64,000 nt of DNA from Gnetum montanum (GCA_015680685.1 MNCI01000614.1:370825-434824); one strand, 5' to 3'; numbered from the stretch's first letter, positions 24,201-62,416 are shown. Numbers and translations: made by a program. Notes: generated from the letters alone by a model not told the origin.

Positions 24201-24767
24201 TAATGTTATCCCATGCAACATTGTTGAGCACTTGAGCTTGACTAAGAAAATTCAACATACAACAACATCAGCTCTCAAGTCCTTCAATGGGTCAAGGGTA
24301 GTTGTCAAGGGGTATATATCCTAAGATTATTTGGTAGGAAAGAAATTCCCCTCCATTGCCAATTTCTTAGTGATGAAGCAGATGCCAGGTTTAACGTTAT
24401 CTTGGGAAGACCATAGTTAGCCCAATTATAGGTCATTTCTTCACCTATCCATTAAGAGATTCACCTTCCTTAGGAGGGAGGTGAAATCATCATTCATAAT
24501 GATAACATGGTTTCCCTGGTTGTTAACAACATAGATATAAAGTACGAGTCTAAAGTGTAGATTCAAGAAGAAACTCCTAGCTATGAAGTCTAGTAGCCTG
24601 AGAGAGTAGAGAAAGCCAAAAGTGACAATGATAAACAATGGAAAAAATTGTGGGAAGAGCTTCCCTTCAACATTGGTGGTGAACAAGGTGGGGAATAAAA
24701 ACTCATGTAGAATAGATCTTACACATTTCCTAATATTTCAAAGATTAGGAAAATTTTTCACAAGTGA
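21228..24767 (+). pseudogene. gag: gag-protease ORF of Tat copy B
   Basis: PLKIPYGVSISQFTKYSDEVD; HFFHYHQFPSHDSN..LKDNLKMMINK; protease HQAHVDDGATTNVIP (ORF 23911-24324); ends KIRKIFHK*. Confidence 0.87.
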
Positions 24768-25049
24768 GGTGCATCCCTAATCCTTTTGCATTATGCTCTT
24801 GTAACCTATGTAACCATGCACTGATAGCTAGTTAGCCTAGATTTCCTTTGTTTCTTGTTGAGTTTTTTTGTTTGCTTTATTTTAACCTTTTTCAACATGT
24901 AGCCTAGAGACTTCATTTTATTTGCATTTCTATTTATTGTGGTAGTTTTCTTTCTTTATTTTCCTTATTTAGCATGATATAAACTAGAAGACCCATAAAA
25001 AACTTTAAAAATGAAAATTGCCAGAATAAATATGAGTTTCCTTTCAACC

Positions 25050-25355
25050 TAGGTCCACCATGGGCTAAAACTTGTAATATTATATGCCTTGCTAGGGCCT
25101 TAAAATAGCAAAAAAAAAAGGAAAAAAAAAACACACCATCAAGGTCCCACCATGGTCTAAAATTGGCAAAACCTATGGCCTGCTAAGGCCTTAAATCAGC
25201 ACCAAAGTTAGCTGAGACTCTAAACTAGCATTGTAGTTTGCTAAGAATTTAAACTAGCACCGCAGTCCACTAAGACTCTCAACTAGCATTGTGGCCTACC
25301 ATGGCATTAAATTAGTGATAAACATATGGCCCACCATACCCTAAAACTAGCAAGA
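25050..25355 (+). repeat. Tandem array of 29-35-bp units with a TAAACTAGCA core (about 9 copies)
   Basis: Directly visible; homologous to 17725-17890. Confidence 0.8.
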
Positions 25356-25683
25356 AACCCTTATTCTATAGTGTTTCATAGTCTTATAGTTTTGTTGTTT
25401 TCTACATAGCCAACATAGCCATTCTCAACATAGCTATTTACAACATTGATAGCCTTAAAACCTTAAAACACTAATATATAGCCAAAAATAAAATGGAAAC
25501 TTAAAATTTCAAACATTTTAAGAAAAAAATATAAAAATATATATAGCCATGGCCACACTATGTGGCATAAGTATTAAAACAATAAGCCATAAATCTCAAA
25601 CTATCTACAACTCAAACATTAGCTAACATCAACCATATAACATCCAACATAAAAAGCCAAAATAAAATTAACAACAAGTGATG

Positions 25684-31445: not shown

Positions 31446-32069
31446 CTCTACTATAATAATGTTGAAAAGGCTATAAAATCTAAAGGTTTGAGCTAACTAT
31501 GCTAGCTAGGAAGCAAGTTTTGTGCTTCCACACTAAAGAATGGATGGTGTTTGCTACAAGAACCTTTATTAGATCTCTTCTCTAATTTGTAGTATTTGAA
31601 ATGAGAGTTATGTTGATTGTATGCAAGAAAATCAAACATAAAACCAAGATTATAATCTAAAAATTTCCACTTATGCCCCTATTACCAATTTTGTTCACTA
31701 GAACTCAAGTTACACTGAAGTGCAAAGCATAAAATGTATTCTCTACAATGGGAATGATGGAAAATAAAATACAAAGTTCACATTTTTGAATTTTTGGTAG
31801 TAGGCCCCATATTATGCTCCCATGCATGGTGTTCCAAGCTAAGAAACTCCATCAATTCTTGGGTTTTTGACCCTTTTTTATATCTAAGATTATTACACAA
31901 CACATCCACCCTTGTATCCATGGTAGGCATCATGGAGCAAACATGGATACTAGCCTCCATTACCTCACAACGCTCCCACATTGGTCCACTTGCTATTTTT
32001 AGCACTAATGACCTACCTTGCCAAGCCCCATACTCTTGAAGGGAATTAGATCTTTATAAAACTTGATAT

Positions 32070-34175
32070 TGGGCATCCATGCTAGGGAAACCCTACCTAA
32101 CATGACGTCTTGTATGGAGAAAAGGGGATAAGACCCATACTTATTCCCCAATGCCCATCAAGCCTAGATCTTACCCCTAAGGTGGGCCCACATGACATAG
32201 AACCCTTCTAAGCACCTCTATCATCCTTGAAACCTAATCAAACCCAGTTGAAAGTGCTAAAAAATTTTGAATTTAGTTAATTGATGCTAAGGGGGGCTTC
32301 CTCCATGTTGGTCAAAATGGAGCCATAGTGGATAAATGATGGATGACCTAAAATAGCGAAAATCAACCAACTAATTTCCATATTGTTAGTTTTGGATAAC
32401 CTATATTTGCCAAAAATAACTCTATTTTTCACATCTAAACCCATCTCCATGCTGGTTGAACCCCCTCTCCTCTAAATTGCCCAATGTGAGGAAATTTTGG
32501 AAGCCTAGGGAGTGTGACATAAAACCATTATCCAAGTCTCAAATTGCCATAGATTTCACTTTGACAGTCCTGGTGCCCCTCCATGACCTTTGATAGTCAA
32601 TAGTTATTGGAACTTGAGTCAATTTTCACTTTTGAAACCTTCTCCATGATGGTGAACCCTCCTACACATTGCCTAGCATGGAGACAACATGATAGCTCAA
32701 AGGTTATGTAGTAAAACCTAGTTTACAACCAAAAATAGCCCCACAACCTACCCTACTAACTTCTAGACCATACAGGAGATTACCAAAGCCTTCAGACATC
32801 TTGAAACTAATCAAACATGGTAAAAAGGCTATTTCCTCCTTTCATCCACATGGGGCCACCCTACCTACTATGGAGAAAAGGGAAGATGATTGCATGAACA
32901 ACTATGAGCCTTCAAACTAATGAACATCAATGCCAAATCTTAACACTTAATCCTCTATAGTCTTGGTGGCTTCAAAGGCCTATCAAACCCTATCAAAAGT
33001 GGCTTAAAACTTGAATATAAGTTCATACATGTTGGGGAAGATCCTCTTCTATGGTGGTCAGTGCGGAGCTAGAGTGGATGGAAGCATTGGAGGGGGAGGG
33101 GTGAGGAGGAGGATAACCAAAATATCCAAGATCAACACTAAAATTAACTTTTGTTGAAAACCCAACATTCTCGAAGGTTCTGACAACTAAAACATGACAA
33201 AAATCATCTTATTTTAGGATCTTTCTAGATTTCATGTTGAGAAACAACATGGATGTAGCTAGTAAGGTTTCTAGAAGATCATAGATACATCAAAATAATG
33301 CTAAATTACTATATGCCTATCCTACAATCCTATCAACACTCCTGGAAGCCACCATATTGCCTGAAAATGATTAGAAATTGCAAAAATCTAACCTCCTAAG
33401 GTCCTCCACATTTGCCAACATGGAAATAGCATGATAAAAGAGGGGCAAGCCTAAAAATCAATTAAAAACTCTCAAAATTACAAAATTTTAACCCTATGCT
33501 TCAACCATCACCATCAATAACCCTAGAGATGTGCATGCATAATCAAAATTGATAAAAAATAATCAAATCCTAACTCTTTTAATCTTCCATGCTAGCTAGT
33601 GTGGAATCAAGGGGATAGCTTACAAAACCACTTAGAAACCATCCAAACTACCTAATTTTGATTCTAAACCCTATCCCTCAACACTGAAAATCTTGGGAGC
33701 TAACATGCATGGTCAATTACTACCAAAAATGGCCTACATCTAAAACTTATGATCTATCCATGTTGGGAACCCCCTCTTCGATGTTGGCCAACGTTGAGCT
33801 AGTGTGGTTGAGTTGCCTATCTCCCTTTAATAGTAGATCGACACTCCAAAAGACTGGAAACCTACACTAGTAAGGCCTAAGACCTCATAGCCTCAAGTTT
33901 ATACTTGTTATATCTTATGTTAATCTTTGAATCTCATCAACTCACATCCTTCATGTTGTAAAAATCTCCCCATCATGGATCAAATGGGGAATAACCTTGC
34001 ATGACCTTAAAAAACCCCTAAACATAGAATAAATTAGCTAAAAGCTTCAGAAATCATAGCTTACAACCCTTGGAGCCTAGAAACTTGGTTGATTTCATCC
34101 CTAGATTAGTCTAAGATTAAAAAGCAAGGGCACTCCCTCTCCTCCATGTTGGCCAACATGCATATAGCATTGAGA
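32070..34175. repeat. Spaced array of inverted-motif clusters (CTCCATGYTGG / CYARCATGGAG) in copy B
   Basis: About 12 clusters near 32080, 32300, 32450, 32645, 32845, 33030, 33235, 33410, 33590, 33760, 33950 and 34145. Confidence 0.7.
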
Positions 34176-34297
34176 ATATTCCAAACTTGTTTTAACACTC
34201 AAAGCCCTACCAAAATGGTCGTAAAGCCTAGTTAGGTGATACAAAACTACTAGATCTTGATTCCAAATGCCTATTCAATCTTGTTTGACCTTGTTTT

Positions 34298-35834
34298 TGT
34301 TGGTGTCGGAAATTTTGATTGCTAAAATAGGAACCAAAAGATCCAAGCACTAGAATAGTTTTAATCTTGAATCCCAAGGGTCTTCAAGAAATGGGATTTA
34401 GGGTACCTTGGATGGTCTTGCTGATCACCTATGAACTTACTAAATGTAAAGAAAAATGGCAAATGAAAATGTAAAAGTAGACCTAGATGAAATTAGAAAT
34501 GAAGGAAAAAATGAAAACATAAACATAAAAAAAAATGAACTTGCAATTATAGATCCAAAAATGAAGAAAAAGAAAGTGTAGAAGTAGAAACATGAACAAA
34601 AACTTGCACAACATGAATAATAACTTTATTAAAAAATAAAGAATAATGTTCATGAAGTATAGATTTTGTGCCAAAGGTACTAGGAGTTGGTGATAAGAGC
34701 TTGAAGTCTATTGGAGAGGGTAGGTTGTGTTATATTGCAACTTCATAATCTAGTTTCTTACCAACTCTAGTTTCTAGCAATTTTCCATTAGTTTCTACTA
34801 GGATCTGCAACGTTGTTACAGAAATGAGTTTTTTCTCTTAGTGTAATGGTAGCCATGTGGGAGTCTCTGTGCCTAGCTTAGTGCCACTTTTTGCTACCAA
34901 ACACTAGAAATAATGCTATAAATGGGTTTTATGAGTTGTGAAAATGCAAAAATTATTGTTATGAGTGTAAAGTTCGAAATTTCTACCAAGGATTGAAAGA
35001 ATGCCAAAGTGCTCGTAATGAAAAGGTGTTGGAACCTAAAAATGGTGTTGATGTTGGGTATTTATAGGATTAGTGTGGCTATTTTTCGGGTTGTACATCA
35101 CTACAATGATTGCTGATAGATTGGTGTCAATGTGTGGGTTCAAACAATCATCTACTTTAATGGTAGTTACCATTTATAATAAGGCTGCTATGAACTATAA
35201 CCAAAAAAATAATCTATTTATAAATAGTAAATAGACTTTTGTGACTATACTAGCACCATCCTTACTACACTATCCTTCATGGACTATTATGAGGTTGTTG
35301 GAAAGTAGCAAAAGTGATGGAAAATGTGCAAAAAGTTGGAATCTATGAAAATGGTGGAATTCGTTAAAAAGTATCATGTCTAGTGGAGAATGTTGTTTAT
35401 CCTAGCCATTGTTGACTTGGGATAACTACACTAGCTATTGTTGGAAAAATGGAAATTTCAATAACTCCAATGTTGCACTTATGCCTAGGTCTTGGTGGTG
35501 ACTACACTAGCTATTGTAGTACCACTATCTACTATAAGTACTATTCCTACTATAGCTACTATGTCTACTAAAAATGGCTCTAGCGTAGTTGGGGCTATAC
35601 CCCTAAAAAATCAATGAAAATTCCAATTTTAGCCATTCCCAAGGTTTTTTCAGCATTCCCAAGCCTAGATATACACATGATGTATCTTTTTCTATGTGGG
35701 AAGTAAGGTAATAATAGGTTTTGAGGCATTTTTTACCTCAGAAAGTTGAAGTATGAAAGATTGTAGCTCATGGACTAAATATCTCACATTTACAATGAAT
35801 CCTTGCCTCAAGTCAAGAAATTAAGGTTACAACA
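34298..35834 (-). repeat. 3' LTR of Tat copy C
   Basis: Intact inverted termini TGTTG/CAACA; reverse-complement homolog of LTRs A and B. Confidence 0.88.
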
Positions 35835-36794
35835 TGATTTTTTTGTGATTTTTCATTTGACCTTCATTGTTGATGTCTAGAGGATTAACCAAAGAGACAT
35901 CAACGAAGAATATAAAACACCACTACATGTCCATCACTAATGTTCCCTCTTCATGCTTGATCCAGTAGTGTCAAATCATGACCAAGAGTGCTTGTGATGA
36001 TGGGGGAAGGTTATGATAGTGAAATGATAGTAAGGTCATAAGGACATGGCCATGAAGGTTAACAATGCATCCCAATTGTTAACAACATGGCTATGGTATG
36101 GCATGGACATATTGATCTATCCATTTGGATTGTATGGTTCTCTCAACATATGCGTTTGAGGAACCAACACCTCACTTCAAGGTTAGTTCAGCCATTAGGC
36201 TCCTCCCTTTGTATGTTTGGAGGCATTGATCTATCCTTTAAGCTTCGTTAACCACTTGACTTCTTAGCAGTTTGCTTTCTCATTTCTTTTTCTAGGGTGA
36301 AACCTTCAATGGGTTTCTTTTCCAAAGCTGAATTTGATTTGGTTTTCCCATTGAGTGAGTTTTGTTACACTTGATGGAATAGATGGTTTTCCATTGAATG
36401 AAGTGCATTACATTCAATGGGCTTGATGGTGAAGCACAAGGTAAGAATGTCATATGGCCATAGAGCATGAATGTCAAATGTTAGTCAACATTATCATCCA
36501 AGGTAAGAAAGGTTATAATCAGGCTATGGGGTTGGGCTCAAGGAAATTGTAATAGAAAAAATATAAAACTATCACTCTTGACATGGTGGGAAAAACTCAT
36601 CGAATCTTTCACATCAAGGTCACGTTATGACTTACTACTATGATGAGTTGCACGTACAATGACTCCACGCTTCATCTTATAAGCACAACTCCAAGATGAC
36701 AAGAGAATGAAACAACAAAAGTTATGTTATTATAATGAAATACATAAGGCCACATAGAATAGTCAATAGATCTGATCATCAAAGGTTGCAAATG

Positions 36795-36872
36795 TTGCTA
36801 GTTTAAGGCCTTGGTAGGCCAGTGATGCTAGTTTAAGGCCTTGGTAGATAGTGTTGCTAGTTTAATGCTTTG
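36795..36872 (-). repeat. Three units of about 30 bp (TGCTAGTTTAAGGCCTTGGTAG) downstream of integrase
   Basis: Directly visible; reverse complement of the unit at 25170-25310. Confidence 0.85.
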
Positions 36873-36913
36873 GAATTCCATGGAAAGCAAGCTCAATTGT
36901 TGATTATTGTTAG

Positions 36914-39900
36914 CTACCTGTAGTATGATTTTAGATAGGAATGATTGATTGAATTTCCCAACTCATATCCATCCACATTTGCTATCTAGTAGGCCCCATT
37001 GCTATAGGCTTTGGTGATCAAGAAAGGCCCTTACTAATTGGCTGAGAATTTGTTTGCATGCTCATGGATAAACTTAAGAACAAGGTACCCTTCCTTGATC
37101 TTGCATTTTCCAAGGTTATGGTGATGTTGCTACTTTTTCCTATTATAGTAGCACTTGGTGTGAGCAAGCATTCACACATGCTGCTTTGCATTGAGTCTAG
37201 GTCCATGGTATGCAACTCCTTATTTTGTTTGTCATTGATAAAATTAGATAGGGTCATGACATCAAATATAATGATAACATTGGGAAAACCCCATTGAGTG
37301 AGTAATGATACCTACAATTAAAGAGGTAAAACTACTTCATTACCATAAATAAGAATATATTTGGTTATGCATATTGTAGCATGGTATGTGGTTTTGTAGG
37401 CCCAAAGTGCATGGCCAAACTGCTCATGCCACATGTGTTTACTATTGTTCAATATTTTCTTGAGCAAGTTGATGATGGCCTTATTTCTTACTTCAACTTA
37501 TCCATTGGCTTAAGGGTAATAAGGTGATGAGAAATAGTGGTTAATGCCTAGGTCATGACAGAAATTTTCTACTTCTTGGCTACTAAATTGTGGTTCATTT
37601 TCTGTGCCTATGGTCATAGGTATGCCAGTATGGGCTACTATGTTGTCAAGAATGAATCTATAGACTTTTTAAGATATCATTTTCCTTAGGGGAATAGTCT
37701 CAACCCACTTGGTAAAGTATTTGGTTGGGATGATGATGAAGATATTCCCTATGGAAGACTTAGGCATTATAGGTCCAATGATATCCAACCCCGATCATTG
37801 AAATGGCCAATTTTTCTGAGTGGTGTGTAACTTAGTTGGTGGTACAAGTATGAGATTATTATGTCATTGACATGTATCTCAAATTTTGACCTTTTTTAGG
37901 TAGTAATTTTCAATATAAGGCCAATAATAACCTAACCATCTAATTTTAGTAGCCATGGATTTAGATCCTATATGTCCTCTACACACACCCTCGTGAACTT
38001 GCTCTAAGACTCTTCTAGATTTAGTTTTACCTAAGCACACTAATAATACATCATCATAGGACCATCGACATAATGTGTTATTGCCTAATATGACATACTA
38101 TTTTGATTATTTATGTACATCATTCTTTTGAACAACAGTCAAGTCTTATGGAGGTTCTTCATGCATAAGGTAAAACTTGACATCATCATACCACTCCTTT
38201 ATAGGAGCAATATGAACTATGGCCACAAAGTTATCCTTAGTATTCTGCATGATGGGAAGAGCATAGTCCCTAATCAATGTTGACAACTTACTAAACACAT
38301 CTAGCATCACATTGAGGGCTAGCATTGTGATAACATCAACTATAGAATTTTTGTTTTGGGGTATATGTTGGATATCAACATTTGTAAATTGTTGTAATGG
38401 TTTCTTTCCAAAGTCATAGTAAGATTGTAAATATTTGGCTTTACAAATGTAAACCTCAATTACTTAGTTTAACATAAGTTTTGAATCACCTTTAATCATT
38501 AATCGTTTAATTCTTAGGTCACAAGCTATCATCATTTCCCCAATTAAACCCTCATAATTTACTATGTTTTTAGTGCATGGGAACTCAAGATGATAAGCAA
38601 ATGATTGGATTTCACTAGACAAGAAGGTAATAATGGCAACAAAACTATTCCCATGCAAAGTTGAAGCTCCATAAAAGTACATGTCTACCTTATAACCATT
38701 AGGTACTTGGCTAATGGTTTTAACATGTTCATCCAAAAACTCAAGGTCGATGATTGCATGGTCATCAATAGGTGAAATAATATGTTGTATAGCTATAGCT
38801 TGATCCTTTGTTGAGGATTGAGAGATGTAGTAAAGGTCAAACTCCACTGTTATGGGTTTTCATTAGGCTCTATGGCCACTTTCATAGATGTTGGTTATGG
38901 CTCTAAGTATATTATCCTTGAAAATGACATTAGCTTGGCTTTTGAAGAGGTAGTGTCTCCACTTTTTCAATGAGAGGACTAGTGCTAGATAATACTTCTC
39001 TAGTTTATTTTATTGAGTCTCATGGGTAACTAATGTAAGGATAAGGTAGTATATTGGCATATCTACTCCATCATCCCATTTTTGATAGAGTAGAGAGGTA
39101 ATAGATGTGTCAAAGATAGTAAGGTAGATATAAAATGGTTTACCTTCTTGTGGAGGATAGATTGTTAATGGTTGTGCTAACTCTTTCTTAAGGTTTTCAA
39201 AGGCTTCATGGCATTGAGCCATTCACTCATAATGAACTCCTTTCTTAAGAAAGTATTGCATGGCTTGTAACTTATCCATAAGGCTAGTGATGAACCTATG
39301 AATAAATTACAATCTACCTTACAATCCCTAAAGCTCCTCGAGGTTAGTGGGTGCTACCTATTTGGATATCATCTTAACCTTTAAGGATTGATGCATATCC
39401 CTACTTCAAACACTACAAAGTTTAGCATCTTATTGGTCTTGATACTAAAAAAATCTTGGGATTAAGCCTAAGTTCATACTTAAGGCATTATTTAAGAACA
39501 AGATCTAGGTCATTAGCATGATTTTTGGCCACTTTGGACTTAATGGTTGTACTGTCTATGTAATCATTGAGTAAACCTAGCATGTAATCACTAAATATAC
39601 ACATCATAGCCCTTTTATAGGTTTCTCCTACATTCTTAAGACCAAAAGGCATATTGGTATAGTAAAAAATACCTCAATGCATCATGAGAAATCATCTATA
39701 AAGGATAACAAGGCATGTCTGGCTGTAGTATTGATAATTTAATCAATACTAGGCAAAGTAAATTCATCCTTGATGGTTGCCTTATTTAGGTCTCAAAAAT
39801 CTATGAAAATGCAAATACTCCCATTTTTCTTAGGGACTACCATAATGTTAGATACCCATTATGTGTAATCAATGGATCTAATGAAACCAACTTAGTATAG

Positions 39901-40344
39901 CTTTGTGATTTCATCACGAACTACTAGGGCCAAATTATGTGTAATATTATAGAATGTTTCCTTAATTGGTCTAATGCTAGGGTCAAGTATGATGTTCTGC
40001 TACACTAGGCATTGGTATAGGCCTAGCATATCTTCATATGACTAGGTAAAGGACTTAATGTTGTATTATAGGACACTGGTAATGTCTTAAGCCCATTGAG
40101 GTTCTAGTCAAGAACTTAATTTTAGCATTTTCTCCTCACCACTATGTGTTGTGATAGGGACCTCAACCAGAGAATATTTGGTTGTGTCTCTTGCCTCTAG
40201 ATGAAAGGTCTTAATTAGGTTCTTATGCCATTCTAGAGGTTTCTCTATTGAGGCTATGTTCTCAACAAGACTCTTAGGCTCAAGATCATGATAATCATGG
40301 TCAATACACCACTTAACATCCCCATGAGGTCCATGTAGGCACAA
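36914..40344 (-). pseudogene. pol: pol of Tat copy C: RT - RNase H - archaeal-type RNase H - integrase
   Basis: RT: VSNIMVVPKKNGSICI, MPFGLKNVGETYKRAM, DYIDS (decayed YxDD). RH: CHEAFENLKKEL..PIYYL. aRH: MYFYGAS..FPCTKNIVNYEGLI..IKGDSKL. INT: GLDIIGPI..YFTKWVE, SSPYYP*ANG. Ends YLKSYYR*. Confidence 0.92.
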
Positions 40345-41239
40345 AGAAAAACTAATATGCTTCTAGATAGTCATACTTTAATCTTGAATGTCAACCAAAA
40401 GCATAGCAAGTGGCACATAGGTAGAAATGCATAAATAATGTTAAAATACTGTGATATCATGCAAACACATGTTATTCTAATGTTGAATATAATATAATCA
40501 AGGTTATCCAAGGCCATGGGAAGGTAGAAACAAGCAAAAATAATGGAAACAAGGTCAAATAAAGGTTTAAAAGACACAAATAAGATTAATAAATGGGTAG
40601 AAAAGGTTATGACCTTGCCAGTTTTAGGCCTTGATAGGCCATGGTGCCACAGTACCAGTGCTAGTTAGGGAAAGCCAAAATGAACTACCCAACATCAATC
40701 TAAGGCTAAACAAAGGTCCAAAAGGCTATAATAAAGAAAATAAAGGGAACATAAGGATACATAAAGTTATATAGGGAACTTATGATGGCCAAGCAAGTCA
40801 ATGATGAAAAACAAGGCAAAAAACAAGTCAAAACATCGTGACATAGGGTCACGTCAAGAAACATGGAATGCATGAGATAAAGATTGGCTAATTTCGATCA
40901 AATAGGAATAGAGTTTTCTACATTTAGGCCTTAGAAAGCCATGATATGGGGCTACAAGGTTGCTAGGAGAGTTTGGGCACATGAGGGGGTCATGTTGGGG
41001 TTGTTTTAAGGAAAATTAGCACTTTTTAATATGATTACATTGTGTTCTATTGGTGAATGCATTGGCCCAAAATAGTCCTAACTTCTCAAGTGTAGTCAAC
41101 ATTCAAATGTAGTTTTCTAGGCTTAGTATGGTGACTTTTAGGTTTCCAGTGGTCTAAATAGCTAGTGCAAGGATGGGTATTGAAGATTGAAAACTTTTGA
41201 CACTATTTTAGCTTCCCAGAAGGCTAAACAAACATAATC

Positions 41240-43780
41240 CCAGATATGACTATGCTAGGCTAGTAGGCCTTAGCATAGTCACATGGAATCACCAATTTTA
41301 TCAGGTTTCTAGAGTTAAAACGAAGTGCAATTATAGCTAGGAGGAATGGGGGTAGGGTTATGGTTATTTTGTGTTAGTTTTAGGTCATTTTGAGCTGTTT
41401 ACTATTGATTTTTATTGCCACATTTCCCCCTCCCATTGGGACTAAATTAGCCTAGTGTAGTCACCACCTTCTTTAATGTAGTCTTGCAAAAAATGAATTT
41501 TGATGAGTTTTGAAGCTTAATTAACCATGCTAATGGGCTTATGAGGCCATTGGTGTTGCCGGCTAGGGTTTTAGTGTTAAAATTTCTCATTTTCATGTCT
41601 ATTTGGATCTTTGATCATCAAATACCATGGGACTACATTGGGCATATAGTTCCCAATGTAGTTAAGGAATTTGGATGGAAAGATGATGGAAAAGAGTGAA
41701 GTTTGTCTTATTTACAAAGGTTTGAAGGTCTATGCATGCTCCAAAAAAGTTTTGGGTCTTTCCAAGAATCAATTTTAGAAGCTTTTGGGAAATTTTAATG
41801 ATTCTCAAGTGGAATACGCTAGGCCTTGGTAGGGACTATTGTGGTCCAACATAGTTTCAAATTTCTCCAGCATAATCAAGTTTCAAAACTTATAAAATAT
41901 TACTTTTATTACCAAATTGACTTTAGTTGATTTCAAAACTTCTAAAAGTGAATTCTAAGTAATTATGGACAAGTTTTTGGAAAATTTAGATGAACTACAG
42001 CTCAACCTATGTAAGGACTACATTGGCTTAGTGTAGTCCCAATTTCCTTCAGCATGTTTGTGATGGTTAAAATTGATAAGAAAAGGTATATATCATGGCC
42101 AAATAGGCTCCGATGAGGTTCTAGGGTTCATCAAAAATGAATTTTCTATCATATTAATCAATCTTAGGCAATTGGAAGTGGACTACACTAGGGCTTGAGA
42201 TGGACTATGCTGGACTGCCATAGTCCCATTCCTCCTTGGCATAGTTGGATTATGTTTGTTCAAAAATGATGAAATTTGACTCAAATCCAAGGTCTGATGC
42301 TTCTAATGTGTCTTGTCAAGTATCTAAAATTTAAAATGACATTCTGCTAGTTAAATTAAACTTGGTTTAAACCCCAAAATGTGGACTACATTGGCCTCCT
42401 ACTAAAACTATGTTGGCCATGCATGGTCCTCTCAATCTTCAATGTAGTCACACTTTGGCATAGAAAATGTGGATTTATATGATTAAAATCAGCTTTGAAA
42501 AGATCCTAGGATTTATTAGTAGTAGAGTTAGGTCATTTTTGGCTATTTTTCATGAATTTTTTATCGACTACATTGAGCTTTGGCAATGACTACATTGGCC
42601 CAACATAGTCCCACCTTTCTCGAGCGTAGTTAAGGTGGTGATGATTAAAAAGTGAAAATGGAGATTTTGGTAGTCAAACAAGCTTAGATAGGGTTTTAAG
42701 GCTTGTAAAAATTAGATTTAATTCATATTTAATAAATTTCAACTAGTTTTTTATGGACTACATTGGGCTCTGGAAGGGACTATGTTGGCCTAGTTTAGTC
42801 CCAATTCTCCTCTATGTAGTTAGGATTATCATGGTTAAAAATGAAGAAAAATTACAAGTTTTGTTGTCAAAAAGCCTCAAATAAGGTTCTAGGATTTACT
42901 AAAGGTATATTTTCATGGTTTCTTGATGGATTTTAGCAACTTTGGATGGACTACACTGGCCTAGTAGAGTCCAAGTCTTCCATTAGACTAGTTGAGGTTG
43001 GGGATGTAAAAAATCAAAAAATATGATAAGGTTCATATCAATCTTTAGCTCTGTTGGATTTTAGGTTTCTAGGGAGGTGAGAAGAACTAGGAAATGAGTT
43101 ATTTGAAGCTTCCTAGATGGAATACACCAACCATCTCTAGTGACTACACTAGCCTAGCATAGTCACTCTTGGGAAATGGTGTTTGGATTAAGAAAAGTCA
43201 AAAACTTGCTTCCATTCCTAGTCTGGCATGGTTTTGAGATCTCTAAAGATGGATTGGGACTTATGACTAATGGATTTATGGATTTTAAGTGGACTATAGT
43301 GGGAACCTACTAGGACAACACTAGCTCAAGAAAGTCCCCTTAGTCTCTAGTGTAGTCCCATGTGGAAGCATAGATTTATGGATTTTCTTTGAGTCTTTAG
43401 TTGATTGGTCAATAGTTTTAGGTTACTAGGGGTACTCAAAAGGTGTGGAGGTTTCGAGATGTAGTGTTAGAGGTTTTTGATCATCTGCATAACCCCTTTG
43501 ATCCTTAAACCTTGGGAGTACATTAGGCCAACATAGTCCCTGGGTTCCCCAGCATAGTCATGGGAAAGAGGGAAAAGTGGCACCATTTGTTGCATTTGAC
43601 CATGTTTTAGGCCTACTAAGAGCATAGACTAGGATTTAGAGAGATGGGCTGGCTATTCAGAGTTGAATGAAGGTTGGATGGAATGGATGGTATATTGTGG
43701 ATTGAATGGAAGCAAGATGTCTTACTAGACTATGCTGGGCTAGCGTTGTCCATCCTCAAGGTCAACATAGTCCTATGTTA
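41240..43780. repeat. Spaced array of nested inverted-motif clusters (GACTAYRYTRG / CYARYRTAGTC) in copy C
   Basis: About 14 clusters near 41250, 41450, 41630, 41820, 42000, 42180, 42385, 42565, 42755, 42950, 43120, 43290, 43520 and 43730; e.g. ggactacattggcttagtgtagtcc at 42015. Confidence 0.8.
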
Positions 43781-44342
43781 ATCAAGTTTTCCATATGAAT
43801 TTTGGAGGTTCTTGTAATCCCATTCATTACATATGTCAATACTTTCTTACTTGGTTTTTTTGGAAGGTCTTATCATGGCTAGGGATTGGGTTTTGGTAGA
43901 TGGATAGGAATTCGTATGAAGCAAGGTTTCCATAAGCTTCGAGCTCTATGTAGTCAAGCCTTATGGGCAAAATTGTTAGCATAGTCATAGTATTAACTTG
44001 CTTGCCTAGTGCCCTATGGAACCCACATGAAATTAGCAAGTTTAAATATTTTCATAACCTAGCTTAGTCTTTAGTTTCCAATTTCATCTCCAAATGAAGT
44101 GAAGTTGCACATGGAAACTAGGGTTTTGGTGTTGGCTCTTAGGTTTTAAGTGAGTTTTAGGGGGAAAATTTTGTAGAAATCATTATTCTCTCATATTTTC
44201 TTTGTTGTGCACAAGTTGGAGATCTTTTACTATCCTATTACCCATCCTTAGTGTAGTCAAGGATTTTCATACCAATAGTGCCAATGTAGTTACTTCAGGA
44301 TTGTCAGAACTCCATAGTTTTTTTTCATTCTCTGCATCAACC

Positions 44343-47300
44343 ATGAACAAGAAGGTGCTCATGAAGAATTCCACATTGGATGAGGTAAAGGAAGATGCAT
44401 AGGACTTATCACAGCTACCTTGTTCAAGGATTGGAGAAGGTGTTCCACTATTTATCCTAGGTACACATTTCTTACTAGTATTTTCACTTTTCCATTTATT
44501 TTATTTTTGGGGTTTTCTTTCTTTTCTCATATATAGGCTTGTGTATTCATTATTTTGAGATTTTGTAAAACTACCACCATATATCTAGTCAATTTTTATT
44601 CATTTTCAATGTTATTTGGGCTTTGGAGTTTGGTTGCATTAAATTTTAAATTCTTTTTCCATGATTTCCATGGCTATTTTGCTTTTTCTGCCAAAAAAAG
44701 CAATGCCACTTTTGAATTTTTTTTCTAACTAAATGACTAGGTTTTTAAATTTTCTAAGTCCATGAGGTTATTTTCTATCATGTTTTAGTGAACAATAGTT
44801 TTAAACCACCAAATTGTTCCTAATAGTTAATTTTCTATGGCTATTTCCGTTAGGCTGCATCAAGTCATGGTATGGGTTTGTATTTAATAGTTAATTTTCT
44901 AATGGTTCATGAAATTTCAAAATTTATGGTATGGGTTTGTATTTAATATTTCAAGGATTCCAACAAACTTTTAATCATTTAATTTTAAAAAATGTTTTGA
45001 CTTTTATTTTCATTTTCGTGAGCTCGTGCGAAATACGTTTCCAGCATGATGACCACAATTAGATCAATTTGGTAATTTTTTGTGAAAATATGCTTAATAA
45101 TTTTATTAGTTTATTATTATGAAGTTGTATTTCATGAATTCATGATTCCAATGGATATGGAATCATTTAATTTACTTAATTAGTTACTTTGTTATGGCCA
45201 TTTTTGTACAATCATGCAAAATCGTAGTTATAAGGTTGTTATGCATTTACCCCTATGAAGATGGGCAATGTTGAGATTGTGAAAAGTTTTTTCCTTAAAC
45301 ATCCCATGATCTTGGGGATATTTTTGGATGTTGGAAAGGGGTTGGAAGTGGTCTAGATAAAAAGAAATTTTTTTTCATATTTTTTAAGTGTTTTCCTATG
45401 GCTATTTTGGTATTAAATTGTAAATCTTGGTTGAATCCTGGTTATAGACTGGTTGTATTTTGGGTTTTTTTCTAATTGTATAATTTAACATTGAAGTTAA
45501 AATTTTATTCTTACATTTTCATTTTCTAGTTTTTATCTCTAAACTATCAATTCCATGTTTTCAGTTGTAATCAATCATTATTGCAATTTTAGTGTTAAAA
45601 TATCATTTAATGTGAATTGTTTCAATTTTTTCTAAGTGTTGTTTACTATGTTTGATGGTTATAAGACTAAAAAAATAGGTGTAGTAGTTGTAATGTTATC
45701 TTTCTTCTAAATTTTATGTATTTTTTTTAATTTTAGGTTTTGCTTTGTATTGCTATAATAGTTGTGGTTGGATGTTATAGGACCTTCTTGAAGGCCATGC
45801 TCATGGTTATAGAGATGGTGTGGCTTTTATGATACATCCATATCCATGGGCCTAACACTCCAATTCTAGATATGGAGTGGGATCACCGTGTGATATGGTT
45901 TAGGCCAAGAGCCAAAGACTTCCTTGCCTATATTCTTAAGAACTTCAGTGTGATGGTTTGGTCACACTTGATGTTTGAATCTATAGTAGTGATTATACAG
46001 TCCATCCTACTTGGGTCCTATAGCTTTTATTATTAAGTTTACAATGGATGAACTTGATTCTTGTGCAGAGGGAGAGAGAAATGATGGCAATACCAATATG
46101 GATTCTCGCAAATTGTTAAAAATTTGGAAGATGCCTGAATTGAGTTAGTATAATGTGGATAATACTTTGATTGTTGGCCACCATGCTCATATATTTTTCC
46201 AAAACCCTCCAGGTACCATTTACCACATAGAGGGGTAAGTAAGGTTGCCTTTGGGTTTATGGTTACTTTCTTTTTTATGTGCTTAAGGTGTAATGATATT
46301 TTCATTGTTTCACTTTCCTAAAAGATCAAGACAGATAAGTGAGGCTTAATCAAAGGTGAGGACCTATTTTTCTTACCGTACATAGCTTTTAGAGGTGTTT
46401 ATAAAAAGCCCAAATGTATGGCTTGTGATAGTGGAGCAGTTGGAGGATGACTTTGAAGAAAGCATTAGATGCCATCCTAAGTCTTATAAGAGATGTCTAG
46501 AGAATGGGACAATAGATAGTTGGTGAGAAAACCCATCTCTTGATGACATAGAAGTAAATCCATCTTCTAGAACTCTTAAGATATCTAAATCATATATGCG
46601 AAGTAAGTGTATTTTTGATTTGTTGATTTCATGCTAATGTTTTTCTAGTTATGTAGTCATTAAGCTATTTTGGTTTTGGCTATCTAAGTAGTTATATTGG
46701 TTTTGTTTTGTCTTGGCTATATTTTTATTGTAATTTATTTTACACAATGCACCTATGCTAAGTCTAACAAGCTATTCCTCATGTTTGGTGAGGTGGAATC
46801 CTCACAAGATTGGTTGATGGATCAGGAACCTAATGCTACAAGTGTGAGGATTATTCATGTGGGCCTATTTGACCTCTTCATGGCCCCAAGCCTGATCATT
46901 TCCACTACAGAGATGTTGAACATTATTAACTCTTTAGCAAAGGAGTCAAGAAGTTTTTCATTCATGTTCATAGTGTGATTTTTATTTTAGACATTACTGT
47001 GTCCACCTTTATTAATCTCTATGGTGTTCCAAATGATCGTATTCTAGTAATATCCAAAGCAGGGAGGGAAGTGAACCATTGTGGTACCAAGGGGTACTCT
47101 CTAAAATAGATAAAGTTACCATTGATTAGAGAAACGTATTTCTTGTTCTACTCCTAGGCATTTCCTAAGTTGTTATTATAGGGAAATATGCTTGACATAG
47201 AGCAAGGTTGGACCATGAAGTAGGTACTCTCAGAGGATGCTTGATTCAACTAGGCTACACACTTGATTTCTAAGCTACAATGGGAGATCCAAAAGCTTTG

Positions 47301-48865
47301 CAACAATCTCATCACAAAGTGCCATGTGCACTTCACACTTTTTGTATCTTATTTAAGGAGGGTGTTAGAGTTCCTAGTGGTGAGGAAGGGTGGGTGATGG
47401 ATTACCCAAGATCCATCCCAGCTCACCAAACCTTGGGTGAAGCTCCTTGCTCTAAGCATGTAGGCCAAAGACCTGCTAGAAGCCATGGGTGACTCACTAT
47501 CTATCACTACCAAGGGAATTAGTGGTAGGCAATATAAGGGCAAGGCCTCTTGCTTTTCTAGGTAACAATAAAAGGATCCAATGATTATACACTAAAGCTA
47601 ACAAGATAGCTAGGGCAAAGCTTAAGAAGCCCATAATTGAAGTAACATTGCTAGTGATCGCGGAGCCTTTGAAGAAGGGAAAGTTAACCATCAAGCTTAG
47701 AGATGTGGACCATGATGTTAGAGGTATGTGTTATTTTAGTTTCCTTTTTTAGTTATTGTTTTAAATTAGTTTAATGTTTCCTTTTAGGAAAAATTTGCTA
47801 ATTTTTTCTATGCTTTATAATTATTGTTCTTTCATATAAGTAACAGGAATAGAAAGCCATGGCCATAGTTGTAGTAGCTAAGGAGGAGTGAAGGAGTAAG
47901 GAAAAGGGGAAACTACAATGTTGAGAAGAGAAAATATTTAAAAATTATGAGGATGAGGCATTACAATAGCAAGTGAATAAGGGTTTATCCCCTCCTCCCA
48001 TAGGCCATTTCTATGCCTTATTCAGGACTGAGCAACTAGGTGATTTGCCTACCTTCTCATTAGATGGTGCACAAGGTATTAATCATTTTTGGTTTTATGT
48101 TTCATTGGATATTTTTTGACCTTGGACATAGTTGTTGATTGTTTTTTATACTTCTTGTAGGTTCAAAGTCCCAAGCTAAAGCTTCTAGGTCCACCTTCCA
48201 CATGAAACCATGGGTGGATACCCCTAATAAATTTGAATTTATGTAGGGTGTCACTGAAGACATGATTAGCTGGTTGCATCAAATAGCTCATAAAATTCCT
48301 AAGAGTTCTAGATTATTGTTCCTTTATTATTTATATGGGTTTCCATGGCTATGAATTTTTTGTTATATTTTTTTTTAATTACTAATTTTTTTTATTATTT
48401 TTTTGATTTTTGTTTTCCTATGTTGGTTATAGTGCCTAAATTGAGATTAGATCTTGACCAACTAGTGGAGGTTTTTACATTGCCTCTTTTAACTCTTAAT
48501 TTAGATAATGTCCCATGAAAGCTATATGAGGATGTCACTAGATGTGCACTCTCATGTGCTAAGTCTTTAAGAGAATGTAGGTTCTCCAACAAGTTCCTAT
48601 GGGAACAAGTTGTAGCATTGAAAAAGGAAAACACATAGTTGAAAGTGGAGGTAAAGGATAGAAGAGATCACAAGGATTTTATGGAGGCCCAAGTGACCAA
48701 CAAGGACTCCTTACGCATAAAGGAGATAACTTTTATTCATTATTGGAATGTGTGTTGTTTACTAATTGATTTTGTGTTGTCATGTCATAGGCACCATATG
48801 ATGATAGTGGCCCCAGCGATGATGGTGAAGATGATCCCCCACCTCCTCCTATAGATGCTACTTAG
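44343..48865 (+). pseudogene. Antisense multi-exon cargo gene of copy C
   Basis: Approximate exons: 44343-44460, 45737-46234, 46325-46602, 46750-47723, 47846-48075, 48161-48290, 48433-48725, 48791-48865, separated by T-rich introns, most with GT/AG ends. Peptides WFRPRAKDFLAYILKNFSVMVWS and RKLLKIWKMPELS*YNVDNTLIVGHHAHIFFQNPPGTIY; ends DGEDDPPPPPIDAT*. Confidence 0.77.
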
Positions 48866-49148
48866 TTCCATAACCTACCTTTCAGTTTTAGTTGTTTTTT
48901 TTTTTCATGTTTATGATGATGTATGGCTAGTGTTAGCTAAAACAATTTATTGTTTGGACATTTTTGCCACATTATGTGTTTATGATTAAGATGTTATGAA
49001 CATTTTAATTTTAATTTTAATCTTAAGTTTCATTTTTAATTATAGTTATAATGTTATAGCATTTTGGTTTTCTTCATGCTATAGTTTTATGTTGTAATCT
49101 ATGTTTTAGGTAATGTTAGCTTAACGTAGTTATAATGTGATAAAAGAT

Positions 49149-49591: not shown

Positions 49592-49884
49592 AAGAGAAAA
49601 TATTTTTTAAAGTTATTTTTATGTTTTAAAAAATTTAAGGATTTTTTGACTTTAAATTTTTAAGAGGTTTTTCTCTTTTCAAGAAAAAAGAAAAGCTTTA
49701 AAAGTAAAAGCATGTAAACCAAAGTAGACTTTAAACTATAGGTAAACTTAAATTCAACATAAAGAAAGAAAGAAAAAATGAGATAACATGAAAAACTAAA
49801 GCAAAAACTAGGCTATTAGGCTATAGGTACATATAATTACAAGGTTATAAGTGCATAGGATATAAGAAGGATCAAGAACATATA

Positions 49885-51672
49885 TGACTTGTACAAGTGT
49901 TTCATAATCTTCAAGAGATTAGGAAATGTACATGTTTTATTTTGCACCAATTTATATTTTCCATCCCCCTCACTAACAAAGTTGAAGGAGAGCTCTTCCC
50001 ATAGCACATCGATGGGTTCATCATTGTTCACTTCAGCCTCTCCTACTCTATCACCATTTTTGATTTTTGTGACAAATAGTAGGACTTTCTTCCTAAAACT
50101 CCACTTCGAACCCTTGTTCCATATTAACATTATTAACAACTAAAGGGACTACACTATTGTCATGGATAATGATTTCACCTCCCTAGTAAGATAGATGGAT
50201 TTCTTAGTGAAGAGGAGAAGACAAAACTCATAATTAAGCTTGCCAAGATCTTCCTAGGATGAGGTTGAATCCTAATGTTTCTTGTACCACCAATAAATCT
50301 ACCATTATGGAGAATTTCTCCCCTACCACAAAATCTATATAAATGGAGCCTTAAAGGATTTAATGGTTGAAGTCATCATATGTTGCATCTATTCAATGAT
50401 GGTATAATGTATGACGTTGATTGTCATATCATGATCTACATGTACTATATGTACTTTGTATTTTTTAACTTGTATGGTTATGAAGAGGGGTGCCTTGGTT
50501 ACCTTGCCATTTTGGGGGTTAATCTTGATTTCATTGTCGTGAAACACTAGCAATGTTGACTTCAATTCTCTATGTGATGAGGGTACCATCATTGCATGGA
50601 TAGACTCTTCATTAGTAGGGATGTCCTCACTAATGGGAATAGAGATCAACATCTTAATAAATGTTTTGCTATGGGTAGCAAAAGTCATGACCAAGTCCTA
50701 GAAGATCAAGGTGGTATTCTTTTACTTGAATAATTGTTTAACTTGTTCCATCACATAAGGAAGTCTTTCTTATTGATCATTGATTTGTTATTTTTGACTT
50801 CTTCCATATGACCTAAAATGCAAACTTCATATTTAGATTGTTGTTGTGGTTTAGTCTCTTTCCTTTCTTCTTGGGGTTTGGGTTCCACTTGTGGTTTACT
50901 TGTTGAAGCACCTTAGGTTATGAAAGTTATGGAAACAAATGAGATGGGAGTGGAATTTGGTAGGTCCACTTCCTTCCCTGACTTTGACTAGTTATCAATG
51001 TTATTCTTGGCCTTCTATGTAGCCTTATTTTGTTGTTTAGTTAGAGATTTCTTGTTATCCTTAATTGGTTGCAAGGAAGAAGACATTGCATTGGCCACCA
51101 TAGGGGGTTGTTGCTCTATTGTTGGGGAAGGTTGTGTTGTAGAGGGATGGGGCACATTGATGAAAAAAGGCTCCTTAGGGGGCTTTCATTATGGTACCCT
51201 TACAATAAAAAGGAATCTTGAACTAGTAGAAGCAAAAGAGTCCCTTTTGTTATGAGGGGATACCTAAAGCATGAATGGTTCCCTCACACACATTTGATTG
51301 TCATTGACATTAAACACTGATATAATGTATGAACTATTGTTGGTTTTCAATGGGTCCTTATATACCTACATCAACTAGTTTTGAGGCCTAATCAAGTTTG
51401 AGGTATCTAGTACTAGTTCACCCCTATCAATCATCTTTTGTAGGTCATCTTTAAGTGGAAGGAAAAAAATTTTATCATGACTTGAAAATTGATGATAATG
51501 ATAGAAGTAGTCGAGCTTAAAGTACATGGGAACTGGAGGATCATCCTTAGTTACTAGAGTAGGACCTTTTACTATTTCATATAACCTATCATGTCTCTTA
51601 CAAAAAATCTTAATCATTTGCTTGTATTGTATCCTACTACTCTTCAACAGTTGGTCTAGAATCTATGATGGC
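49885..51672 (-). pseudogene. gag: gag C-terminus and protease of Tat copy C
   Basis: ORF 51375-51647 (YFYHYHQFSSHDK..LKDDLQKMIDRGEL), ORF 50389-50694 (VHIVHVDHDMTINVI) and ORF 49837-50139, all homologous to A and B. Confidence 0.87.
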
Positions 51673-52511
51673 TGATAAGTAACGAGGTACCCCTACGCCC
51701 AACCATATGAATATGAGTGTTATGAACGATTCAATCAAACTCCAAGGATTAAATGTTTATGCACTTACATAGAACAAGGATGGGTTATGTGAACGTTATC
51801 TTCCCAAGCTTACTTGTACAACATGATTTTATGGTTAAGTAAACTTGAGGTATATGATTTTTATGTTTTATGTTCCTAGTGCTTAAAATGGAGAAATAAA
51901 ATAATTGAGTTAACTAATTTAATTTCACTAATCCACTATGCTCTAAATAGTCCTAACACTAGCATCCATTCCCACTTGCCGAACACATCCTAAACCAGTG
52001 TAACACTACTGGGATTACCAAACACTAGTCATTATTGGGTTACCAAGTGTTCCATGTATGCTCAAAGTAGTCGTACTGAGTGTGCTAATTTTTTGATAAT
52101 TAAAAATTCAATAAAATAACATTAATTAGCTAATGAGAGTAGAAAATAATAGTAAATAACATTTAAATGAAATAATTAAGCTATTCTGAATGTTACAAGG
52201 TTTATCATAAAGTTCGTCATTATTTCCAGACATAAGGTTTGCTCAGGTACACAATGCTTGAATAAGGATCCATTCACTTTATGACTCCTACTACAGACAC
52301 TTAGAAATAATGCTAACTCTGGAAAGGAAAAACTATAAGAGTTTGGCTAAGGAACTAAGAAACTAACTACAAAATCATGTGCCCTTTTCTCTTATTTATA
52401 GATGATGAGACAAGTTCTGATATTGCATGTCTGATATCACTTTGGCACCTCTGATATCATGTATCAGATATCGATGGTTTGATATCATAGGTCTAATACC
52501 ATGACTCATCA
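51673..52511 (-). repeat. 3' LTR of element 2 (839 bp)
   Basis: TGATAAG..CTCATCA; direct repeat of 60780-61416; TATA at 52393-52400 (minus strand); TCYGATATCR repeats at 52415-52500. Confidence 0.92.
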
Positions 52512-52525
52512 TACCCCCATGACTA
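52512..52525 (-). promoter_or_regulatory. PPT of element 2
   Basis: Minus strand TAGTCATGGGGGTA abuts the LTR. Confidence 0.7.
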
Positions 52526-54479
52526 AATGAAAACTCATCCTCGAGTTCCTTACAAAATATTGGAAAGGTATGGGATTATTAACTAAATGACAACTGACGA
52601 TGACATGGAATGATAGACTCAAAGTGCCTGGTGAATGGATCGACAAACATATTATAGCATTAGTGTTCATAACCATTGTGGTGGACACTATACATAGATG
52701 ACATCTAGACCCTCATTTGATAGCTTGAAGAGATAGAGAAAAGAAAATGAGACATGTTGCTACCGATGTCAAAAATGTGCACACTATTGTTCATCCATGG
52801 CCACATGATCAAGCTTGTTCCTTACGTAAATGCTTTTTGCTCCTGTCCATCTTGAGTGCTCCCTTCTATCCTAGTCCATTATTCATGTGATTTCCATCTG
52901 CACACACAACATAATCACATATTAGCGAGGTTAGATAAGGTATAATGTAATTGATACCTTGCCTCGAGATGAAGCACATTGGCTAGGTTGTGGGTATGGC
53001 AGATACTAGGTTAGAGGTTTGCAATTAAAAACTACCCAAGGTGTAGGGGTGATATAAATAATGAAATTGAAAAATTTGCAATAGGCCCCCATGACTAAGA
53101 GAGAACCTCTGGTAGCAATAGGGTGGAAAATGAAAGAACAAGAGAGATGAGAGAAATAACAATGGTGAAGCCAATAAAACAAAAATAGAAATGGATGTCA
53201 TGGATGGGGTGAAACAAGAAAGAGTTGATTGTAGAAAATGTTTAAGGGTAAGAATTTAATAATTACACCAAAAATGAATGCTAGTGGGTCCTCCCCAAAG
53301 CAAGCTCATGTCCTTGATGCCCTAAAAAACCAAAAAACCAAAGAGTCTGTAGGCTCTAGGAATGTCATATGGAAACAATGGTTAAGAACTTACCCAAAAT
53401 AATTTACCAAAGAATAAAAATGCATCAACCAAGATATAGACTAATCATAAAATCAATAATGAGGTGGAATATGGAAAATAATGTGGAAAGAGAGAATGGA
53501 ATGGAATCCCAAAATCAAGGTTGTGTAAAGTCCCTTGTATATTATGTGATTAAGGTGACTTAATGAAATTCAGCCCAAATCCAGATTAAAACTAACCACA
53601 TCTAGTGACCTTGCATCAACAAAATTGACCAACCCATCCTCCTAAAGCAATGAGAATGCTTTCACAAAGCAACCACCATTCCAAAAGGAGAAGAATAGAG
53701 AAACAGGAACTGAGGAAGGGCTATAGTTAGAGGGAACCTTTAGGCATGGGTAAAATGTCTTTCAAGTGCCATAATCAGTGCTTATAGCCCATGTTTCTTT
53801 ATTATGTCTAAGGGGTGTGCTTTGAATTCTCACCAGTTTTTTTGAATGAGAACCACACCATGCAAAGACTTATTTGATTTAGTCAACTTCCTGATATTGG
53901 TCAATAGTGAAATGGTAGAAAACCTATGAAAAAAATCTAATTACCTAAGATAATAGGCAACTCAAATGTGTTGAATTCCCTTGAAATCACATCCTTTTCA
54001 ATCCATTTATATCTTTCCTTGGTTTGAAGAATAGCAAGCCACCAATTCATTAATAAGTTTTCTTAGAAAAAAGGATAGTCCATTTCCAAAATAAAGGGAT
54101 ACCATGGAGTTGTATGGATAAATGGATGACATGGACTCATTGCTTGTTTTATCAAAAGAAACCATATCTTAGCATCAACAATAAAAGTCAAAGGTAAAAA
54201 CTAAACATTATTGATCAACACCATTATAGTACAATCCACCATCATGAGCACTTATTATATGACAAGTGAGAGTAATTCAAAAAAAATGTAATAGAGAAAG
54301 AAATAGTAAAAATGTTAACAATGGTGTAAAACAAAAATAAGTAAAGATGAAGAATGTGTAAAATGAAAAAGACAAATTAACTAGGGGATTTAGAATGGTT
54401 AGCATTAGTGGCCATCTTTCCCACAACTAAGTTGGAAGGAGGAGATCCAAAATAATGAGCAAGGTTGTTCATTAATAGA

Positions 54480-60778: not shown

Positions 60779-60779
60779 A

Positions 60780-62415: not shown

Positions 62416-62416
62416 T

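Follow-up and report, generated by a model that had tools for sequence, protein, structure and literature searches.

A decayed retrotransposon of Gnetum montanum carries, between an antisense cargo gene and its pol, an array of 15 palindromic motif modules that recur every ~190 bp and alternate with AT-rich stretches in which AA/TT dinucleotides are helically phased. The module spacings fall into classes one helical turn apart, a sister element holds a second array of the same geometry, and the motif recurs in LTRs. From these features we infer nucleosome positions, protein binding, a promoter role and selection: the array is probably, if far from certainly, an old tandem repeat in which the palindrome, the 10-bp spacing classes and the phased A/T runs were selected as a DNA-level chromatin platform. 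The array is real, and it was likely functional in the living element. All positions refer to the window, a stretch of 64,000 nucleotides (GCA_015680685.1 MNCI01000614.1:370825-434824), and are counted from its first letter.

Results

The host element and its neighbours

Decayed plant LTR retrotransposons, nested in one another, make up the window (CG observed/expected ~0.1). Judged by its sequence, the host of the array, element C, is a decayed Ty3/gypsy element of Tat/Ogre-like type, reading on the minus strand from a gag-protease-like region (51673-49800) through the antisense gene, the array, RT, RH, aRH and integrase to an LTR (35836-34298). The broken pol (36920-40360, minus strand, upstream limit approximate) comprises RT (~40150-39200), RH (39222-39013), aRH (38463-38149) and integrase (38097-36920), and Pfam matches follow in this order on the minus strand: RVT_1 (E 0.021), RT_RNaseH_2 (1.7e-9), RVT_3 (0.013), Integrase_H2C2 (3.6e-4) and rve (5.5e-8). 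It was also located by tblastn with the relatives P0001-P0003, which have the same pol domains; outside the family, the closest pol matches are just 28% identical. The likely 3' LTR (34298-35836, minus strand, ~1.5 kb) is 59% identical over 1.6 kb to 11414-12849 in sister element A and matches 19082-20362 in sister element B in pieces of 63-69%.

The gag-protease-like region (49800-51673, minus strand) shares ~65% DNA identity with 14722-17436 and 22071-24844, is truncated at 51673 by another LTR element, and is disrupted upstream of gag. It contains what we take to be the protease catalytic pattern; the Pfam gag-asp_proteas match is weak and confined to sister copy B (E 0.11), and a search of the PDB with the protease-like profile gave nothing but a chance match. 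Colinearity suggests that gag-protease, cargo, array and pol form a single element C, of which the 5' end lies outside the window, as does B's pol. Protease and RT of this Tat-like element, with its aRH between RH and integrase, stand ~9.5 kb apart (49800-40360), and the gap holds the 4.5-kb antisense gene and the array. Element B matches this with a colinear antisense gene of its own, so that the succession of protease, antisense gene and spacer appears to be a family trait.

Element B lies on the plus strand, with an LTR from ~19043 and gag-protease at 22071-24844 (+). Just after its LTR stands a primer-binding-site-like word (20521-20537), which we take to resemble a decayed site of the tRNA-Asn type. 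Tandem repeats of 29-35 bp occur in all three sisters (17790-17888 in A, 25181-25353 in B, 36793-36873 in C); those of B and C enclose decayed forms of the 7-bp motif core and match each other at 76%. Element D (51673-61417) is a complete nested Ty3/gypsy element with LTRs 86.5% identical and protease, RT, RH and integrase on the minus strand; it has no aRH match, 11-mer motif or 10-bp signal and was used as a control. Elsewhere in the window are a copia-type gag piece (7294-7566), an integrase (11384-10614, minus strand) interrupted by element A's LTR, and palindromic, GC-rich CGATATCG repeats (3953-4090 and 61412-61532) that show little decay at CG and belong to a younger element family, pieces of which face each other at 1647-3558 and 61787-64000.

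The cargo gene

The cargo gene (44343-48880, plus strand) is broken, multi-exon and antisense to element C, with exon limits drawn from the sequence: a likely first exon (44343-44460), an FCP/NIF-like piece (45761-46223), conserved blocks (46891-48324), a coiled coil (48420-48674) and an acidic, proline-containing tail. Its counterpart in element B (25427-31200, minus strand), downstream of B's gag-protease, is colinear with it, the main blocks sharing 27-50% amino-acid and 56-62% DNA identity. An FCP/NIF-phosphatase-like domain heads the gene in both copies (45761-46223, plus; 29864-29403, minus), as judged from weak matches: Pfam NIF scores below the cut-off in C (E 0.0036-0.0059) and gives no match in B, and the sole PDB match is UBLCP1 (E 1.1), whose DD pair is unmatched in both copies. 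The domain is possibly a pseudo-phosphatase, apparently without the aspartate pair. Homologue searches, including one of 1.8 billion proteins with 0 matches, returned nothing, a weak negative given the decayed queries; the likewise decayed cargo frames had no matches to DUF1985, PMD or Transposase_28 and no recognisable DNA-binding domain. NIF terms were not found in five files of the supplement to PMC6317226, whose eORF domain table may still hold such a domain.

Motif, modules and spacing

The original prediction had described, at 41240-43780, about 14 clusters of forward GACTAYRYTRG and reverse CYARYRTAGTC sites with unrelated linkers between them. Clusters stand where it had placed them (42181/42203, 42566/42588/42600, 42756/42778/42790), and the position between a divergent cargo gene (+) and pol (-) is confirmed. 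The array is somewhat larger than thought: it spans 41033-43775 and has 15 modules, the first (41033-41097) lying left of the predicted start, and single or half-module reverse sites (43945, 43976, 44059, 44248 and 44281; minus strand, 43945-44291) reach up to the cargo gene's likely first exon. Matches to the 11-mer within 41240-43780 number 18 at no mismatch and 36 at one, against shuffle means of 0.01 and 0.38 (maxima 1 and 2 among 100 shuffles). Pol and cargo of C hold 0 matches each; C's likely 3' LTR holds four copies (35243-35590; 0.09 in shuffles).

The inner forward sites lie at 41055, 41248, 41440, 41631, 41834, 42016, 42203, 42406, 42588, 42778, 42949, 43142, 43314, 43516 and 43728. 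Regular spacing was rightly predicted and its values are now sharper: 171-212 bp with a mean of 190.9 (SD 11.8) in place of ~185 bp and a range of 170-230, which is, as proposed, about one nucleosome repeat length. A full module consists of a forward site at -22, a forward site at 0, a single base, a reverse site at +12 and a reverse site at +33/34, with gaps of 11 nt between the forward and 10-11 nt between the reverse sites, such that sites of the same direction are 21-22 bp, or two helical turns, apart. This arrangement of two forward and two reverse sites, predicted to be typical, is better called the full form: all four sites are present in 3 of 15 modules at up to two mismatches and in 7 of 15 at three. 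At up to two mismatches, the outer forward site is found in 7/15, the inner reverse in 11/15 and the outer reverse in 8/15 modules; the inner forward site served as anchor and is hence present in 15/15 by construction. In modules 41248 and 41631 the reverse site lies one helical turn further out, at +22 rather than +12.

Periodicity is well above background. Autocorrelation of 6-mers peaks at ~190, 380, 570, 760 and 950 bp (z 9.3, 10.0, 7.3, 8.7 and 5.8), while control regions give scattered values up to z 5.7 without a comb. Applied to the stretches between modules alone, the same analysis yields no clear 190-bp comb, and Tandem Repeats Finder does not detect the array.

Phased A/T runs and a probable nucleosome register

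What lies between the modules? In these stretches alone, AA/TT has a 10.3-bp period that 0 of 200 block shuffles reach, and, measured from the palindrome centre, it keeps phase at about ±40, 50, 60 and 70 bp (0/500 shuffles on each side). The phasing persists in the ten outer modules taken by themselves (reached by 6/1000 and 0/1000 shuffles) and is not significant in the five inner ones alone (100/1000 and 398/1000), nor when anchored on the midpoints of the stretches (178/500). Within a stretch the phase is kept over about ten turns; a slip of -4.0 bp (bootstrap -4.9 to -3.5) separates the two sides of the palindrome.

The spacings tell a matching story once the 147 bp of a nucleosome core are subtracted: the remainders are 24, 25, 35, 35, 40, 43, 44, 45, 46, 46, 55, 56, 56 and 65 bp, with 13 of the 14 intervals within 2 bp of 10n+5 and classes of 171, 182, 192, 202 and 212 bp equal to 147 + 10n+5. 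Non-modal spacings differ from 192 bp by whole turns (p 0.0003, or 0.004 with a duplicated trimer counted once). In yeast, AA/TT/TA has been placed at positions 8, 18 ... 139 of the 147-bp core, and linkers follow 10n+5 (Wang 2008, PMC2522279); a 45-bp linker centred on the palindrome puts these canonical positions at ±40, 50, 60 and 70. Scored in this way, 200 of 360 cells hold AA/TT/TA if the palindrome is in mid-linker and 81 of 360 if it is on the dyad, in a register recognised post hoc from C's own profile and with a Fisher p that is overstated, neighbouring cells having been treated as independent. Since the phased AA/TT falls at canonical positions, what the original prediction called linkers are likely the nucleosome seats, with the palindrome in the true linker DNA and the outer sites at nucleosome edges. 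The A-tract phasing and the 10-bp spacing classes thus make the nucleosome reading stronger than the prediction could know. A spacing of ~190 bp is also that of bulk nucleosomes genome-wide in maize (PMC3053214), and fibres of the 10n+5 type have been proposed to be transcription-competent (PMC7896024).

Phased A/T could, alternatively, act by bending. In such a curved-DNA barrier, comparable to the PATCs of C. elegans, the runs would disturb nucleosomes and protect the promoters of cargo and pol from silencing, and a protein site would recur at 190-bp intervals. PATCs derive from transposon minisatellites, disrupt nucleosome organisation and resist silencing according to a preprint (10.64898/2026.08.08.743475), and in element C the phased runs continue past the array: scored in windows of 2.4 kb, the 10-bp signal rises at ~29-36 kb and 38-45 kb and nowhere else, and is therefore local yet wider than the arrays. 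We nonetheless consider a barrier of this kind unlikely, as the runs are short (3-6 nt) and a continuous bend needs neither the phase slip at each palindrome nor spacings of 147 + 10n+5. Separately, neither the 7-bp core (z 4.0 at 38-40 kb) nor the AA/TT signal of 10 bp stops at the array: both reach into pol's 5' portion, where RT/RH is encoded (38001-40000).

Conservation, decay and a tandem origin

That the stretches between modules are unrelated, as predicted, does not hold. The central ones are homologous (42013-42274 versus 42585-42849, 67% over 268 bp; pair z as high as 6.3), which shows that the array began as a tandem repeat, and a trimer of 572 bp has been duplicated. Taken as a set they carry phased A/T runs; 14 of 91 pairs within C reach z of at least 3 against 0 of 70 control pairs, most pairs lying barely above chance. 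In a rerun, 11/91 pairs within C, 7/91 against reverse complements and 9/140 against B's stretches reached this level; since reverse complements and B's stretches match too, the likeness is in part a common A/T pattern.

The palindromes behave differently from the stretches around them. In an unanchored alignment, the best 23-column window has an identity of 0.691, against a maximum of 0.584 in simulations of uniform decay at matched mean identity; in each of three settings, 0 of 40 uniform-rate simulations reach 0.691. The motif is thus conserved far beyond its surroundings (0.69 versus at most 0.58), at variance with a simple old satellite in which both would be equally conserved; the prediction that only motif and spacing are conserved went too far in its 'only', the helical A/T pattern having been kept as well. 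Its reading of the variants as decay products of a CG/CHG ancestral form is borne out, both deamination outcomes being seen at either slot. Of 31 sites selected on the letters that cannot be methylated, 14 have CA in the CG slot, 10 TG, one CG and 6 something else; in the CHG slot, 13 have TTG, 8 CTA, 4 CTG and 6 something else. With such mixed products, most sites would have held both methylatable words until this copy died, by which time the stretches between them had already diverged. This pattern points to purifying selection on the motif core.

Could the array be a neutral satellite? A 190-bp unit with A-tracts and a palindrome may have been amplified, decayed and changed in length by A-tract slippage, which could yield 10-bp steps without selection, and the apparent conservation would then be an artefact of motif picking. 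The homologous central stretches and the duplicated trimer fit such a history, and tandem arrays with no assigned function are common in Retand elements (PMC11963269). Against this, the simulation was likewise allowed to pick its best window and still falls short of the observed core, the most mutable bases (CG and CHG) are among those kept, the motif also stands in non-homologous LTR contexts, and the arrays of C and B share a geometry although they can no longer be aligned. On balance we hold a neutral origin of these features to be improbable.

Array B and motif copies in sister elements

Element B has an array of its own (31900-34290, plus strand), which is placed with respect to B's antisense cargo gene just as array C is with respect to C's; the LTR of C cuts it. 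It repeats at offsets of 182, 197, 731, 738 and 744 bp, with the best comb at 183, and aligns with array C solely in pieces of 44-67 bp (E 0.017-0.044). Its motif has the 7-bp core of C (z 7.0), with CC in place of GACT as flank and no central base. Centres in B were picked by a score of our own, a choice that can flatter the array: of 17 picked, 14 entered the phasing test and 11 the slip, spacing, register and stretch-similarity tests, 6 having been excluded because they were irregular or lay beyond the array. Between the 11, the ten intervals are 169, 174, 174, 181, 183, 191, 192, 192, 192 and 193 bp. The modal spacing of 192 bp (191-193 in B) and the A-tract register are common to both arrays; AA/TT in B has a period of 10.1 (0/200 shuffles), and mid-linker and dyad models score 134/264 and 60/264 cells. 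Phasing on B's left side (110/500), the phase slip in B alone (-5.1 to +1.2) and its spacing classes (p 0.17) are not significant. The hallmarks of positioned nucleosomes, an AA/TT period of ~10 bp in canonical register and 10n+5 linkers, are therefore strong in C and weaker in B, with the register recognised post hoc. Similarity of stretches between C and B (mean z 1.14; 9/140 pairs at z of at least 3) is near that within C (1.48; 11/91), and shared ancestry of the two arrays, which a neutral satellite would also predict, is possible.

Beyond the arrays, 15 further copies of the C-type 11-mer lie in the LTR and 5' leader of element A (11693-13606; 0.35 in shuffles), mostly unpaired and without a 190-bp comb; B's LTR is not enriched (1 versus 0.39). 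All 30 bins of the array stretch are covered by contigs, mostly below 90% identity, from four runs that bear four organism labels (982-3362 contigs per run), and the array hence belongs to a dispersed family and is not a local accident. Many of these contigs match the palindrome core alone and then diverge, and two loose-end cells repeat the outer site 21-22 nt upstream. A pattern scan of viral contigs for the 23-bp palindrome found none, nor was a P0001-related locus found there. The sole metagenome match to that pattern, L001, was rejected as chance: it is a lone, perfect inverted repeat of ~70 bp (1400-1472), with an undecayed 23-bp palindrome at its centre, in unrelated-looking DNA without an array.

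An RNA-hairpin alternative

The original prediction had also offered a hairpin reading. In genomic RNA, such hairpins might serve packaging, dimerisation, splicing control of the long gag-pol gap or as a source of small RNAs. Palindromic modules necessarily fold; 73% of cells pair, and 4 of 12 folds reach z below -2. Sirevirus LTR palindromes can likewise fold as hairpins and have been proposed as a small-RNA source (PMC4728375). Covariation, the check proposed for this reading, is absent among 13 aligned modules of this one decayed copy (388/500 shuffles reach the score; 6 pairs changed on both sides versus 7.7 in shuffles), in a test that post-insertion decay blurs. An Rfam search found no match, the four arms share a single sequence, and many sites, including those in LTRs, stand unpaired; helical phasing, moreover, belongs to double-stranded DNA. 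We regard RNA hairpins as the least probable of the explanations considered, and a very unlikely one.

Discussion

What might such an array do? The ~190-bp motif period, the phased A/T runs and a sister array of the same geometry suggest that it seated nucleosomes in a row. Nucleosomes would occupy the AT-rich stretches and leave the palindromes exposed between them, where a dimeric or cooperative sequence-specific protein would bind in linker DNA; the same protein would bind the LTR sites. The region, which adjoins the cargo's first exon and is ~0.7 kb away from pol, would be kept open as a promoter/enhancer for the antisense cargo gene and possibly for pol, and the array would help keep the element's two flanking genes on, in the sense of anti-silencing. 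A bidirectional promoter/enhancer, as originally suggested, is plausible; pol could instead be reached by splicing from gag-protease, as in Ogre. On the pol side, a TATA-like word (40773) and acceptor-like sites (40726, 40661) were considered and set aside as within chance for AT-rich DNA. A sigma-70 promoter scan gave nothing above shuffles, its bacterial-type model being inapplicable to a plant.

The binder may be element-encoded, with the cargo product acting in the manner of VANC, or a host factor, at about equal odds; we lean slightly to the former because the motif flanks are family-specific, and the cargo protein would be the obvious candidate. Taken further, the lineage might encode its own chromatin fibre, with 10n+5 nucleosome seats and methylation-prone palindromes read by a co-evolving cargo protein, keeping an element split between gag-protease and pol unsilenced. 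We put this forward tentatively and consider it rather doubtful. If true, it would be the first sequence-specific retrotransposon anti-silencing system found in our literature search, with a nucleosome register built in. The chromatin-platform reading makes predictions at base-pair level: nucleosome edges ~22 bp on each side of the palindrome, a footprint on the palindrome, and family-specific binding. For a high-copy family, these are within reach of MNase, ATAC and bisulfite data that already exist. If that reading is true, it would show how promoter-open elements colonised giant, heavily methylated plant genomes, and it would provide a natural case in which selection acted jointly on motif, linker length and rotational phase.

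How does element C compare with known systems? Its order RT-RH-INT with an additional aRH is that of the Tat clade, and aRH between RH and INT is the arrangement of Ogre/Retand, reported from angiosperm lineages only (PMC6317226). The gymnosperm clades TatII and TatIII, with aRH between PR and RT and after INT, respectively (PMC6317226), differ from C in this respect. With Retand and Ogre, C shares the aRH position, a protease that lies with gag apart from pol (in C, with a weak protease assignment), an antisense extra gene and family-specific tandem arrays (PMC11963269, PMC6317226, PMC4408406). In Ogre, a spliced intron separates PR and RT (PMC4408406), and a PMD ORF stands before gag, where C is disrupted. 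In Retand, antisense genes (TRP28 ORFs) and arrays, whose origin and function that paper states as 'unknown', sit downstream of pol, between pol and the 3' LTR (PMC11963269), whereas C has both upstream of RT, its 9.5-kb PR-RT gap being filled by the 4.5-kb gene and the array, and its decayed cargo gives no match to Transposase_28 or PMD.

The closest functional parallel is VANDAL/VANC (Hosaka 2017, PMC5735166): as there, a short, family-variable motif has piled up in non-coding DNA by tandem repeats, with an accessory gene alongside. In a system of the VANC type, an element-encoded DUF1985/VANC-like protein binds the motif, and methylation is lost locally. A structural link between VANC and the PMD proteins of retrotransposons has been drawn through the PMD-C clade (10.1101/2024.09.27.615353). 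VANDALs, however, are DNA transposons with non-palindromic motifs of 8-9 bp and a demonstrated binder, and the word 'nucleosome' is absent from the text of that paper, whereas C is an LTR retrotransposon, described here from its DNA, with palindromic pairs at helical spacings, a nucleosome-length period and no VANC-like domain found. Sirevirus LTRs (PMC4728375) resemble C in carrying family-variable clusters of palindromic motifs in likely cis-regulatory DNA, but belong to Ty1/copia, have the clusters in the LTR, at four loci, and in the parts of that paper covered show no array of nucleosome period. Like C. elegans PATCs (PMC4947018; 10.64898/2026.08.08.743475), C has 10-bp periodic A/T in repeats; PATCs, as described there, act without short protein motifs. 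Maize CRM2 is a plant retrotransposon with 190-bp nucleosome phasing, which in C is predicted; according to the text of PMC3053214, however, CRM2 nucleosomes are phased in the absence of AA/TT periodicity, and those on CentC do not keep step with the CentC monomer. A search of the open literature turned up no account of a retrotransposon motif array in nucleosome register, nor of the present layout. Retand antisense genes and arrays were known already, as were Sirevirus palindrome clusters; what appears to be new is a palindrome array of nucleosome-length period in the PR-RT gap, in which, unlike in PATCs and CentC/CRM2, motif, period and A/T phase are locked together.
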